Part shown: positions 28,790 to 33,801 of the stretch, piece after piece
Layout of the letters: each line of letters begins with the position of its first letter
How positions within the stretch are numbered: position 1 is the first letter of the stretch
Notes under the pieces: model-generated
Told to the model about the DNA's origin: nothing
Seen by the model: only the letters and a program-made list of their open reading frames with translations
Databases searched by the model: none
Position numbers and translations under genes: made by a program
DNA from: Escherichia coli
GTDB lineage: Bacteria; Pseudomonadota; Gammaproteobacteria; Enterobacterales; Enterobacteriaceae
NCBI RefSeq assembly: GCF_003334335.1
Contig: NZ_QOWQ01000029.1
DNA length: 64,000 bases
Strand: one strand, 5' to 3'

Positions 28790-31042
28790 TTATAAATAGA
28801 GATAGTTCGGCGGTTCTCCTGTTTTCCCTAAAAGAAGAGCGCTACGCCCAGGAATATTGATATTTAGAGTTCCGCCTCTAAGCGTAAATACTTTACCAGG
28901 GGGGATAATTTTTCGGGTATTATTAATAATAATGTTAACGCTATTACTCCCCATGTTTTTGTATATTCCAGGTTGCAATTTGTTAGGCCAGGTACCTTCA
29001 ACTTCTTCGTTTCCTTTATTTATTATAACTAGTCCATCATGAGGAGAGTGATTAATGTTCACAGAATCCCCACGACTAAAGGCCAGAACGTTTTTAGTTG
29101 CAGATACACCCTCAAATGCGCTCCATATTCCTGCTTTATCTATATATAATGCGTGGAATTCATTGTAGAGCTGCTGATAGGTAGAGCAACCTTTATTAAG
29201 CTACGCCTCACCGCCGACACGCGTGGACCCATCATAATTTTTAATTTCAGTCGTTGATTTTAATACTTGGCCATCCCAGTAAACTAAAGGCCTGCTGAAC
29301 GGCAGAGCGGCTATATATGCCATTGCTAATTGTTCATCTTGTTGATGGTTAAATAGAAAGTCATTGAAAAGATTACCATTGTTAGGAAAATCGTGGTTAA
29401 TGTTAATCAATATCCGTCTTTCTGATGGGATACTTGAGATTGTGGAACCCGGTTTTGATGCAAGGGTTTGAAGATCTCCACCAAATGAAAAGGCTTTTAT
29501 CGTTTTCATGAGCAATGAAAAATCAATGGCGCTTAAATCATCTCTTTCATAAAGCAGTGATGACATTTGTTGTTCATCCAACTGACAAGTTACCAGATAT
29601 TCCATGTAATTCATAACGGCTTTTTTATGATATTTTGGGTTAAATAAGTTAGTATTGTGTAACCGCTCATTATAATTTTTAAGCGGTGGGGTTATTGATC
29701 TTTCTATTTGTTCATGTTTTGAGTGTTTTGCCGCATCATAACGTAAACCTCGTACGCCATATTTTCGCATTTCACGAACGTATTGATTTTGCAACATAAT
29801 AACCTGGTCACTTTTGGGTGTTGTTTTAGGCATTCCATTTAAACGCTTTTCTTTTAATGCATGGAGGTTTTCCCATTCATCCTTAGAGATGTTATCTTTA
29901 CTTGCTTCGAAGTCTTTTGCAGTGAGATGTATATCTTCTGGATGGATTTGTTTACGTTCTTTTGTTACTGGATCTTTAATGAATGGAATCAAAACCTGAC
30001 CTTGCTAATAGCCAGGGATACCACCTTCTATATCTTTACTGATCTTCGCTCGTATATCAGCAGAGGGATAATCCAGGTCATTTTTACCACTACCCCCAAT
30101 TCCCATAAAGTTAAAGGTATAATCAGGAATGATATCGATACCAAATTTTTTAGCATCTTTAACCAATGCAATAAAATCCTGCAAATCTCCCATTGGATTA
30201 TGGATGGTACAAAGATCTTCGGGTTGATAAGCATGAAACCAGTAACCCTTTTCTTCTTCGGGAGTTTCTGGTCCGTCGGCGCGGAAAGTTGTCACTGGAG
30301 GGATTTGTATATACCCATAATGGCAACGTGCAAATTCAGACATATTTTCTCTGATCTGCTGGTAGGTGGCATTAAAAGCATGAAGAATCGCTTCGCCAGG
30401 TTTTTTGGGGGTGATGATTTCACATTGTGATTTCTGAACAGCAGTAAGAGATTTACGCTCAAGTGTTTGCCGTAGATGTTCTAGATTGATTAATATTTTA
30501 AATGTTTCTTGCTGTCCGGAAGGTGACGTCACGTTAATATTATATACATCGGCTGCCAGCTCATAGTCAGGAATGTTAATAGCATATGCAACATATTTAT
30601 CTTTTGGGGAAGGTTTGTCAGATATAATGTGGGTGAAATGTTCAGCACGACCATACTGATAAACACCGCTGTTATCACCTCTTTTAATCATTGTATCTCG
30701 TTGATAAACCTATGTTTTTCTTTCTCCTATCCTGTCTGGCGCTGTAATGCTACGCTGTGCTGCTTTATTCAACTCTCGGTAAGTTGTATCTGGAGAAAGG
30801 GAAATTTTATAATCGTTTTTTAACAGATCATTAATAACTTTTTCTGCGTGAAAAGTTGATATAATTTCTCTGTCTTTTAATCCTTGAGGGTAAACTCCAC
30901 AAGAATTAATAATATTTGTTATACAGTTTAGATATTCTAATGTATTTAATTTGGAATTTAGATCCCCGTCAGTAATGTTCCATGATAACAATGTGGGGTT
31001 GTCGATAGGTAAATTTCTGGGTCCTGGTTTTATAGAAAACAT
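28790..31042 (-). pseudogene. ygaQ: GH13 (alpha-amylase family)-like gene ygaQ, broken by three in-frame TAG codons
   Basis: Four consecutive minus-strand ORFs (30710..31042, 30005..30691, 29201..29992, 28790..29062) share one frame and are separated only by single TAG codons; GH13-like motifs YDAAKH and NHD; AT-rich. Confidence 0.8.
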
Positions 31043-31601
31043 AATAAAGTTCCTCTAATGGTAGAGTAATATGATGTATACGGAAACATAAAAATGTTTA
31101 ATTGTTGTGAAAGTAATTGCAAACAGATGTCCTACTTTTATCCAATATTTATATGGAAAAGGATAATGCTTAAATCTGTTTTATTAATTATCGATGTGGT
31201 CTGGAGAGGCAACTGTCAAAAATCGCTCATACGAAACTAATGATTAGCAGAATAAGATCTATGAAAGAATATATTGCTATACGAAGTTTATTTTTATGGA
31301 GTGAAAAGTAACAGATATCATAATGATGCGAAAACTCTTCAGCTAATGTAATAAAGTTATATTATTAGATACAAAATCATTACAAAGTATCATTGAATCG
31401 ATGATAACTATAGATAGTGCTAATTATTAACATTTGCTTGTTGACTGCGAGTATCGACTTTGCGAATGGAGGCGGTGTCGGGTTTTATGTCGCGTGTAAT
31501 CACGACCCAAGGTGAATGGGAACGCATAAAAATCTGTTATTTACATCATATGATCATCATGTTTATTGCGTGGTTTATAAGTATTGTTATTGCACACTCA
31601 A

Positions 31602-31677
31602 GGCCCTTTAGCTCAGTGGTTAGAGCAGGCGACTCATAATCGCTTGGTCGCTGGTTCAAGTCCAGCAAGGGCCACCA
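31602..31677 (+). tRNA. ileY: tRNA-Ile2 (anticodon CAU, lysidine-modified)
   Basis: GGCCCTTTAGCTCAGTGGTTAGAGCAGGCGACTCATAATCGC...GGTTCAAGTCCAGCAAGGGCCACCA; cloverleaf with anticodon loop CTCATAA. Confidence 0.9.
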
Positions 31678-32427
31678 AATCATTATTTACGTATCAGGAA
31701 GAGTTAAGGGTACAAGGGGTACTCGATGGCGGTCTATATTTCATGACTAACGCCATTTCAAGGAAGAAGTGCGGTGGGTGGTTTCGAATGAGGGCTGGTG
31801 TTTTGGTACGTGGCACGCCACTGCAATGTATTTATCCATCAGTACTCATTCAAAAGTACCTGGAAAAAATGCCTGCTATGCCAAGCGGGCAAATTGCTTA
31901 CATGTGGAATTAAGTAATTAACGATAAAGCCAGAGTATTATCATTTATTATACCCCTTCATTTAATCAGGTTAATTACTCAAATCACTGAACTATTCTCT
32001 GTTCGCTCACTGATGATAAGTGAGTACCACAACCAATGTATGTAGAACAATGCCGTAGAGTAAGGATGAAATGTCTCTGCCACGCCTTAAACATCTACTA
32101 CTGACCAGAACACCCGCCGCAGGCAGATGAGTTTTGTGAGCGTTACAGGAGCGTGGCTATGCTCATTAACCAACGCTATTGAGATATAAATTTCTAACAC
32201 TTGAAAAACGATTTTCACTAATAAATTATAACGGTTTTTTTTATCATACAGCGAAATAACCTTTTGTTTATTAAATTTAACATTCCTGTGCTAATTTAAT
32301 TAAAAGTTCCATGCGTAGCAAGTGAAGCAGTTAATGTCAGTAATTGTCTCAAATGAGCGTTTTTTTATAGTGACAAACAGTAATAACATTAAAAATAGCC
32401 ATGTAGACATTAATTGAGGAATAGACA

Positions 32428-32910
32428 ATGTTAGTTAGTAAAAGCAACGGATTTAACGCTAGCGCAGTTTTGGGTAGTGGAAGTTATAATGAAAATAAAT
32501 CTTCTAAACACATGGAGCTACTAGCTCATAGTATTTTAAAATTAATTTGTAAGGAAGCTGCATCAGAGACGTATCGCGGTGCTCTTGAAACTTTACAAAA
32601 AATGATGTCTGAATGTATATATCAAGAAGGCAACGCCTTTGTCATTATGGGAGCTGGAGAGCAATTAAAACGTATTAAATATGAAGTTGGTGAAAATAAC
32701 TTAAAGGTATTCAACGTACACTTTAATAATAATCACGAGTTAGTTAGTTCTGGTGAGCCTGACGTAATATGTTTAAGCAAGCAGGTCTGGGAAAATCTTC
32801 TCATTAAACTAAAGCTGGAAAACAATGAAAATGTGTTTTCTGAAACTAAAAAATTATCGAATAAAAATAATGCCGATCAGTTTTTTGAATGCGCTAAAAG
32901 AAATGAATAG
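32428..32910 (+). CDS. Hypothetical protein in AT-rich islet (ypjC-like fragment); ends at a TAG that is in frame with ypjB
   Basis: 160-aa low-GC ORF; no recognisable domain. Confidence 0.45.
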   Translation: MLVSKSNGFNASAVLGSGSYNENKSSKHMELLAHSILKLICKEAASETYRGALETLQKMMSECIYQEGNAFVIMGAGEQLKRIKYEVGENNLKVFNVHFNNNHELVSSGEPDVICLSKQVWENLLIKLKLENNENVFSETKKLSNKNNADQFFECAKRNE

Positions 32911-33009
32911 AACCTTTTCGATAATATAAGAAAAAGTGATTTTCATGTTGGTTTACTTAAGCCAAGTAGTACGCGTAGTGTTATTTTAGAAACGCCGCCA
33001 AATGTCTGT

Positions 33010-33801
33010 ATGGAATCACGTAATTCATATGAAAACAAAATAGATGAGATTTCATCTTTGTCAGAGTCAAAGGAACACCCCATAGATATTCAAGAAAAAA
33101 AAGATGCGTTTGTGAATGAGTTCAAGGGGGTGTTATTTGATAAAAATACAAGGTCTTCAGAGCTTCTGTTTAATTTTTATGAGTGTTGCTATAAGTTTTT
33201 ACCAAGAGCTCAGCCTCAAGATAAAATCGATAGCTATAATTCAGCACTGCAAGCTTTTTCCATTTTTTGTTCATCTACGTTGACACATAATAATATAGGC
33301 TTTGATTTCAAATTATTTCCTGAAGTCAAGCTGTCTGGAGAACATCTTGAAACGGTATTCAAATACAAAAATGGCGATGATGTCCGGGAGATAGCCAAAA
33401 TTAACATTACTCTCCAAAAAGAAGAGGGTGGTTTATATAATTTACGTGGATTGGATTTTAAGGGGTGCTTCTTTTCTGGACAGAACTTCAGTAACTATGA
33501 TATTCAATATGTGAACTGGGGAACGTCATTGTTTGATGTTGATACTCCGTGTATTTTTAATGCGCCTGCTTACAACAAGAGTAATGAAAAATCATTAAAA
33601 CCTGTGAGCGAAAACGGTTTAAGTGGAGTATTGACTGATCGTAATAATAAAATAAAACTCATCACGGGCGTGGCACCATTCGATGATATTTTATTTATGG
33701 ATGATGACTTTGATGATAGTTCCTCTGAGGATGATCCCGTTGAGAATAGTCCTGTTGTGACTAGTCCCGTTGTATCAAGTTCTAAAAGCAGTTTTCAATG
33801 A
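33010..33801 (+). CDS. ypjB: Uncharacterized protein YpjB (263 aa)
   Basis: 263-aa low-GC ORF, MESRNSYENKIDE; short pentapeptide-like periodic stretch and acidic Ser/Pro/Val-rich tail. Confidence 0.65.
   Translation: MESRNSYENKIDEISSLSESKEHPIDIQEKKDAFVNEFKGVLFDKNTRSSELLFNFYECCYKFLPRAQPQDKIDSYNSALQAFSIFCSSTLTHNNIGFDFKLFPEVKLSGEHLETVFKYKNGDDVREIAKINITLQKEEGGLYNLRGLDFKGCFFSGQNFSNYDIQYVNWGTSLFDVDTPCIFNAPAYNKSNEKSLKPVSENGLSGVLTDRNNKIKLITGVAPFDDILFMDDDFDDSSSEDDPVENSPVVTSPVVSSSKSSFQ

Follow-up and report, generated by a model that had tools for sequence, protein, structure and literature searches.

A 64-kb stretch of Escherichia coli DNA (contig NZ_QOWQ01000029.1 of assembly GCF_003334335.1; the whole stretch is called the window here) contains an AT-rich islet in which two genes, ygaQ and ypjC/ypjB (ypjCB), are interrupted by four premature stop codons, all of them TAG (amber). 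The analysis presented here indicated that these are very probably two ordinary, annotated pseudogenes, that their four ambers arose via independent G:C>A:T transitions and were assembled by recombination, and that the shared stop type is a coincidence. The pseudogene status of both genes was already known, as each is flagged as a pseudogene with an 'internal stop' in RefSeq; in our search of the literature on ygaQ, ypjC, and nonsense spectra, the restriction to amber codons was not discussed anywhere. The ancestral codons at the stop sites, the polymorphism of the stops, the mosaic structure of the ygaQ allele, the other disruptions of the same genes, and the relaxed constraint on ygaQ were observed directly. 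We infer that the shared stop type reflects chance and that the decay was possible because the islet was silenced or little used.

Translation of the two genes yielded three premature stops in ygaQ and one in ypjCB, all TAG and with no frameshifts, in agreement with a preliminary description of this DNA. The ygaQ pseudogene occupies positions 28790-31042 on the minus strand and is annotated as an 'alpha amylase C-terminal domain-containing protein'. It consists of 751 codons in a single frame, with internal TAG codons at positions 111, 346, and 614 and a terminal TAA. The ypjCB pseudogene, annotated as a 'YpjCB family protein', lies on the plus strand at 32428-33801; its 458 codons, including the stop (a 457-codon open reading frame, or ORF), are also in a single frame and contain one internal TAG and a terminal TGA. 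Relative to intact orthologs, the window copies of ygaQ and ypjCB both had zero frameshifts or indels.

To place these stops, we used two sets of sequences. Specifically, the window was compared with 27 orthologous E. coli loci spread over the identity range (28 sequences counting the window), and TAG alleles were counted in 5426 complete E. coli genomes using exact 33-mers centered on the TAG. The ygaQ gene was present in 4188 of the 5426 genomes (3366 at a coverage of at least 80%), and ypjC was present in 3082. An intact 750-amino-acid (aa) ygaQ, annotated without flags, was found in nine of the 27 loci, namely those of WB61, HYM1, Iso00041, EC10, MSB1_6C, F5446, Combat11I9, OkiPb01695, and CE10. 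Intact ypjCB genes encoding 449 to 484 aa were found in O157 EC4115, 21B8, EC10, WB61, CV839-06, and others.

At the four sites of interest, the intact alleles carried TGG, TGG, TGG, and CAG (CAA in the O157 lineage), and there was no in-frame TAG anywhere in them. Each of the four ambers was thus a derived, single-base G:C>A:T transition. In the case of ygaQ, all three replaced a tryptophan codon: TAG111 (30710-30712; ancestral context acaTGGgtt), TAG346 (30005-30007; tatTGGcaa), and TAG614 (29201-29203; gcgTGGctt) are on the minus strand and appear as CTA on the plus strand. The ypjCB amber at codon 161 (32908-32910, plus strand) replaced a glutamine codon in the ancestral context gaaCAGaac. 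The ancestral state was also visible outside the species: an Escherichia albertii protein that was 60% identical to YgaQ had tryptophan at all three ygaQ sites, and a 34%-identical homolog kept the tryptophan at position 614.

The stops were restricted to some lineages, and their distributions differed. Codon 111 was TGG in 21 of the 27 loci, TAG in K-12 RV308, 33-6, M37H, and 2013C-4830, and CAG in ATCC 43886. TAG346 was found only in the window, K-12 RV308, Combat13F7, 2018-11-3CC, and ATCC 43886, and the other compared loci all had TGG. TAG614 was present in 14 of the 28 sequences, the window included; it is the commonest of the three ygaQ ambers and probably the oldest. In the first 11 ypjC loci, every non-TAG codon at position 161 of ypjCB was CAG, except in the O157 lineage, where it was CAA, and alleles without this amber were seen in all 23 ypjC loci. 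Among the 5426 genomes, the TAG allele was carried by 2391 at codon 614, 1074 at codon 346, 917 at codon 111, and 1238 at ypjCB codon 161, and these sets were partly nested.

The three ygaQ stops did not share a single history. Over coding nucleotides (nt) 251-700, a segment of about 450 bp that corresponds to positions 30343-30792 of the minus strand and carries TAG111, the window ygaQ differed from that of M37H by 1 nt and from that of Combat13F7 by 13 nt. Over coding nt 701-2253, the relationship was reversed: the window differed from Combat13F7 by 2 nt and from M37H by 50 nt. The combinations of stops in other strains followed the same division. Strains 33-6, M37H, and 2013C-4830 had TAG111 with TGG at codons 346 and 614, and Combat13F7 and 2018-11-3CC had TAG346 and TAG614 with TGG at codon 111. 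Because of these mosaic differences and stop combinations, we place the three stops on at least two ancestral haplotypes that were joined by homologous recombination. Strain ATCC 43886 (locus L020) had the window haplotype with CAG at codon 111 (T331C) while the two other ambers remained; most simply, this is a later TAG-to-CAG change that converted the amber to a glutamine codon.

The substitutions that followed the stops in ygaQ were those expected of a gene released from protein-level constraint. Among intact alleles, we counted 49 nonsynonymous (N) and 102 synonymous (S) changes, an N/S of 0.48. In contrast, the variants private to the TAG614 clade comprised 13 N and 6 S changes, an N/S of 2.17 (Fisher P = 0.004 relative to the intact alleles), together with one further nonsense change. 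The neutral N/S for the ygaQ sequence under the mutation spectrum of the locus was 2.64. The alleles that carried TAG614 or other stops had also gained frameshifts, an insertion of the element IS903B, and deletions.

Disruptions of other kinds were common in the same genes elsewhere in E. coli. In ygaQ, we found frameshifts of +1 at nt 1640 (four strains), -1 at nt 1193, +1 at nt 2138, and -1 at nt 581. Other lineages carried in-frame deletions of 3 and 6 nt, a CAG413>TAG change (O157 lineage), or the IS903B insertion, and many genomes had lost the 5' half of the gene via 5' deletions. In ypjCB, there were frameshifts of -1 at nt 609 (four strains), -1 at nt 348, and +1 at nt 1201, a 161-bp deletion, and the nonsense changes TGT41>TGA, CAG119>TAG, and TGG121>TGA. 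The neighboring autotransporter gene ypjA had an in-frame GAA>TAA change in strain 2013C-4830 (locus L027, 6250-9438) and was frameshifted or truncated in several other strains. Across the E. coli islet loci, frameshifts and all three stop types were therefore present, with at least seven single-base frameshifts in ygaQ and ypjCB; the five nonsense events outside the window were two TAG, two TGA, and one TAA (the ypjA event). Protein fragments from 90% clusters that were mapped on the intact YgaQ ended at the TAG614, TAG413, or -1 at nt 1193 alleles or at contig ends, and they revealed no new nonsense events. TAG codons thus arose separately from sense codons in some lineages and frameshifts occurred in others, the very outcome that the preliminary description had named as refuting its amber hypothesis.

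Taken on its own, the ygaQ-type gene was inactivated many times independently, via four nonsense sites, four frameshifts, the IS903B insertion, and 5' deletions, mostly in A/B1-like and O157 (E) lineages. In more divergent lineages, ygaQ was still intact and under purifying selection, at the N/S of 0.48 given above. The repeated inactivation could represent convergent loss.

The preliminary description had offered three explanations for the ambers, and the third, coincidence in ordinary pseudogenes, was the one that agreed with the derived and lineage-restricted stops, the relaxed constraint on ygaQ, and the other types of disruption. Another was that the islet came from a donor, such as a phage or mobile element, that read UAG as sense or depended on an amber suppressor, so that the TAGs would be original sense positions. 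Four of four interruptions being TAG would suit such a donor, as would an AT-rich islet at a tRNA gene with a recombinase remnant, and one PHROGs family without a known function (PHROG 30093) covered YpjCB at full length; none matched YgaQ. The orthologs pointed the other way: the sites in intact alleles were TGG or CAG with zero in-frame TAG codons, the E. albertii protein had tryptophan at all three ygaQ sites, and the TAG alleles were polymorphic within E. coli at differing frequencies. In addition, a tblastn search of 50,697 phage records returned a single record for YgaQ, which included flanking chromosome, and none for YpjCB; a phage origin was rejected, as these records held no real phage relatives. 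The 64-kb window contained no tRNA with a CUA anticodon according to ARAGORN and Rfam, which detected only ileY (anticodon CAT) and the transfer-messenger RNA (tmRNA), in line with the preliminary description, in which no suppressor tRNA had been found there. The ancestral sense codons contradict a recoding donor, and we regard it as extremely unlikely. The remaining explanation was conditional expression: the genes would have kept their function, and amber read-through would produce the proteins under some conditions. The frames are open and in phase over all of the stops, and termination at UAG is not the most stringent in E. coli; the stops are followed by G, C, C, and A (ygaQ codons 111, 346, and 614 and ypjCB codon 161, respectively). 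However, the N/S of the TAG614 clade was near the neutral value rather than that of intact alleles, which contradicts this explanation for ygaQ; because the post-stop variants were near neutral, functional read-through of ygaQ is disfavored. Stop-carrying alleles also accumulated frameshifts, the IS insertion, and deletions, the stops were polymorphic and were not kept by purifying selection together with the downstream ORF, and, with basal read-through compounded over three stops in series, the expected yield would be negligible. Frames that stay open and in phase are unremarkable, because stops are rare among neutral substitutions (about 4-5% are expected to make one) and there were no single-base indels on the window haplotype. 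Thus, conditional read-through seemed highly unlikely.

The amber-only pattern itself called for an estimate of how often it would arise by chance. The four sense codons were restored, and every single-base path to a stop was enumerated. TAA was expected to make up 39-52% of nonsense events in every mutation model that we tried (52% with equal rates, 39% with G:C>A:T transitions only), so the earlier expectation that TAA should be favored was sound. TAG was expected to make up 23-38% over the models and a fraction of 0.28-0.29 with the spectrum of the locus; when only G:C>A:T transitions were allowed, the expectation was 38% TAG, 23% TGA, and 39% TAA. The locus spectrum was based on 116 polarized changes: 56 G:C>A:T, 32 A:T>G:C, 11 G:C>T:A, 10 A:T>T:A, 5 G:C>C:G, and 2 A:T>C:G (28 transversions). 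Per site, G:C>A:T changes were 3 to 50 times more frequent than every other substitution class at the locus, and among sense codons, only TGG and CAG become TAG through a transition. The probability of four TAGs was 0.003 with equal rates, 0.007 with the locus spectrum, and 0.02 with G:C>A:T transitions only, and that of four stops of any single kind was 0.05-0.08 (0.066 with the locus spectrum); all of these values are nominal, as they concern four events and a pattern that was picked after looking.

Two mutational explanations that would make the TAG excess more than chance were considered alongside these estimates. One was a real local bias, for example a sequence context that favors TGG>TAG and CAG>TAG over CAA>TAA and TGG>TGA. 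The nonsense events over both genes were six TAG, two TGA, and zero TAA, those caused by G:C>A:T transitions were six TAG, one TGA, and zero TAA against the expected 38, 23, and 39%, and on one strand every TAG event was a C>T change within 5'-CA-3'. A CAA>TAA change would occur in that dinucleotide too, however, so this context does not separate TAG from TAA and leaves the absence of TAA unexplained. Moreover, the four prompting events were selected post hoc, the five events outside the window were split among all three stop types, and no site was a Dcm site. We consider a real local bias of this kind improbable, and a related reading, in which G:C>A:T nonsense in the islet truly favors TAG over TAA through extended-context mutational bias or through weak selection on stop type in H-NS-silenced DNA, seemed quite improbable. 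The other explanation was that the ambers came from deamination of Dcm-methylated cytosines in CCWGG sites (CCAGG>CTAGG and CCTGG>CCTAG), which would yield TAG specifically. In E. coli, Dcm sites are known as hotspots of G:C>A:T mutation (PMC13250602). The products at these hotspots always contain TAG, and all four of our events were G:C>A:T transitions. In a script check, however, no CCWGG overlapped any of the four ancestral contexts (0/4), and a Dcm origin was rejected; we give it next to no credence. The four sites resembled the Dcm amber hotspots known from the classical nonsense spectra of lacI in that G:C>A:T transitions gave TAG, but they differed from them in lying outside CCWGG.

Several observations weigh against the reading of the ambers as coincidental stops in ordinary pseudogenes. 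The nominal probability of four TAGs was low (0.003-0.02). When ygaQ and ypjCB were pooled over the 28 genomes, the count of six TAG, two TGA, and zero TAA was obtained from transition targets that comprised 29 CAA codons, which would give TAA, versus 17 CAG and 11 TGG codons, and a modest real TAG bias is compatible with the data from these genomes. In the case of ypjCB, the N/S was about 2.6 in intact and broken lineages both, so this measure has no power to show post-stop relaxation there. In 2013C-4830, the TAG111 mutation could have occurred a second time on that strain's haplotype instead of having been transferred to it. Finally, the scan for suppressor tRNAs covered the 64-kb window only.

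With these points taken into account, we favor the following sequence of events, in which the ambers are ordinary pseudogene stops. The AT-rich islet around ileY is horizontally acquired DNA in a phylogroup-A-like E. coli. Separate G:C>A:T transitions produced its four ambers, not all at one time and on no fewer than two ancestral haplotypes; TAG111 was later brought by homologous recombination into a gene that had TAG346 and TAG614 already. Once the first stop was in place, ygaQ was free of constraint on its protein and drifted. That the four stops are of one type is then most probably a small-sample coincidence that transition bias made somewhat likelier, and no recoding, suppression, or programmed read-through is involved.

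This proposed history is like that of other nonsense-disrupted pseudogenes in E. coli K-12 and RefSeq. The likeness extends to intact orthologs in sister lineages, derived and lineage-restricted stops, relaxed constraint, and the frameshifts, IS insertion, and deletions that other strains have accumulated in these genes. Nothing essential is different; the oddities here are that one haplotype has four ambers and that recombination joined stops of different origins. The ambers in the islet share only one property with systems of stop reassignment or suppression (amber-recoded phages, pyrrolysine, and supE-type suppression), namely in-frame TAGs in otherwise open frames. Unlike in those systems, the TAGs were not conserved among orthologs, the ancestral codons were those for tryptophan and glutamine, the window had no CUA tRNA, there were no phage relatives, and the intact alleles had no excess of in-frame TAG.

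The biological weight of these results is small, in that they remove a tempting wrong lead on amber recoding or suppression in E. coli. They also carry two lessons for the reading of pseudogenes. Base composition alone is a poor guide to the type of stop, which is best judged from the codons that were ancestral and from the mutation spectrum of the locus. In addition, recombination can stack independent stops in one allele, and counts of stops on a single haplotype therefore misrepresent the history of events.

The ambers have also left marks in databases and in the literature. In one paper, ygaQ is treated as horizontally acquired and silenced by H-NS, with a promoter inside the gene (PMC7229825), and in another, a 110-aa 'YgaQ' product from the ASKA collection was characterized as a single-stranded DNA flap nuclease (PMC4725251). 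The published 110-aa YgaQ corresponds to codons 1-110 (window positions 30713-31042) and is the N-terminal stub, ending at TAG111, of a 750-aa protein that is predicted to be GH13-like. The 110-aa 'YgaQ' protein as a database entity is an artifact of the amber stop, whose allele was present in just 917 of the 5426 genomes.

The likely family of the full-length YgaQ was inferred from profile and structure-database matches of an intact 750-aa ortholog. The Pfam matches were weak but consistent (Alpha-amylase_C PF02806, 1.8e-5; Alpha-amylase PF00128, 8e-4), and a search of PDB returned alpha-amylases down to 1.7e-7 over residues 218-318. The scores with the NCBIfam alpha-amylase models were far under the cutoffs. 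Together, these matches gave a weak but consistent indication that the ygaQ product belongs to the GH13-like (alpha-amylase) family. The YgaQ-type family was very narrow, with nine clusters among 5.8 billion proteins; apart from E. coli and E. albertii (60% identity), only two distant relatives (34% and 24%) were represented, and the family is essentially confined to Escherichia. Directly 3' of the ygaQ TAA, a consensus scan alone identified a terminator-like hairpin (28752-28779, minus strand) with an 11-bp stem, seven GC pairs, and a T-rich tail.

YpjCB is a protein family without an assigned function (NCBIfam NF050179). The intact 484-aa ortholog from EC10 matched this model as well as Pfam DUF5507 and DUF5508, and a PDB sequence search found no structural relative for YpjCB. 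In an intact YpjCB (locus L009, 6735-8189), DUF5507 covered residues 1-160 and DUF5508 covered residues 234-484, which match the K-12 fragments YpjC (160 aa) and YpjB (263 aa) on either side of amber 161. The boundary between the two domains appears to be a pseudogene artifact, and this Pfam pair, made up of the fragments that flank a K-12-lineage amber codon, is another database artifact of these stops. Among the ypjCB loci, there was also an indel of 105 bp following nt 625, and the natural stop was at either codon 450 or codon 458. The similar N/S in intact and broken lineages was close to the neutral value of 2.57, yet long intact ORFs were kept in DNA with a GC content of 34%, which suggests that YpjCB is under diversifying or very weak selection.

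The order of genes in the window was yqaB-gshA-luxS-emrRAB, followed further along by gabDTP-lhgO-glaH, ygaQ, ileY, ypjC/ypjB, a recombinase remnant, ypjA, and ssrA-smpB. The GC content was 0.31-0.44 from about 28.3 to 35 kb, compared to 0.53-0.62 to the left, and thus the AT-rich islet was centered on ileY. The window ygaQ was 100% identical to that of strain 720632 and 99.9% identical to those of K-12 derivatives. The end of ypjA (34584-39293) and the tmRNA gene ssrA (39454-39816) were separated by about 160 bp, and the CP4-57 prophage was absent between them. Since ssrA directly adjoins ypjA without CP4-57, the DNA is not that of MG1655, although it stems from a strain closely related to K-12.

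Between the two pseudogenes, ileY (31602-31677, plus strand) was identified by ARAGORN, by Rfam (tRNA, 73.8 bits), and by RefSeq, which labels it tRNA-Ile; with its CAT anticodon, it is not an amber suppressor. ARAGORN labeled the same gene tRNA-Met, and the difference in labels is a caution for scans that seek unusual tRNAs. The tRNA-Ile label is what would be expected of a lysidine-modified Ile2 tRNA. The Rfam, promoter, and terminator scans of the islet returned nothing that was relevant to the amber-stop question.

A truncated, pin-like serine-recombinase remnant was located on the plus strand at 34138-34305. It had weak NCBIfam recombinase matches and is annotated in RefSeq as 'recombinase family protein; incomplete; missing N-terminus and C-terminus'. 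This remnant lay in a region between ypjCB and ypjA (about 34060-34360) that also contained a weak IS3-transposase-like scrap in another frame. Both are interrupted through truncation and not through amber codons, and both are just outside 28790-33801. The preliminary description's heading, that every coding interruption in the islet is an amber, was therefore accurate for ygaQ and ypjCB and slightly too broad for these two remnants. The remnant and the scrap fit a decayed integrative element at ileY. In other strains, the DNA beside ileY carried IS2, IS3, or IS1 elements, and in Iso00041 it carried phage tail and late-control genes.

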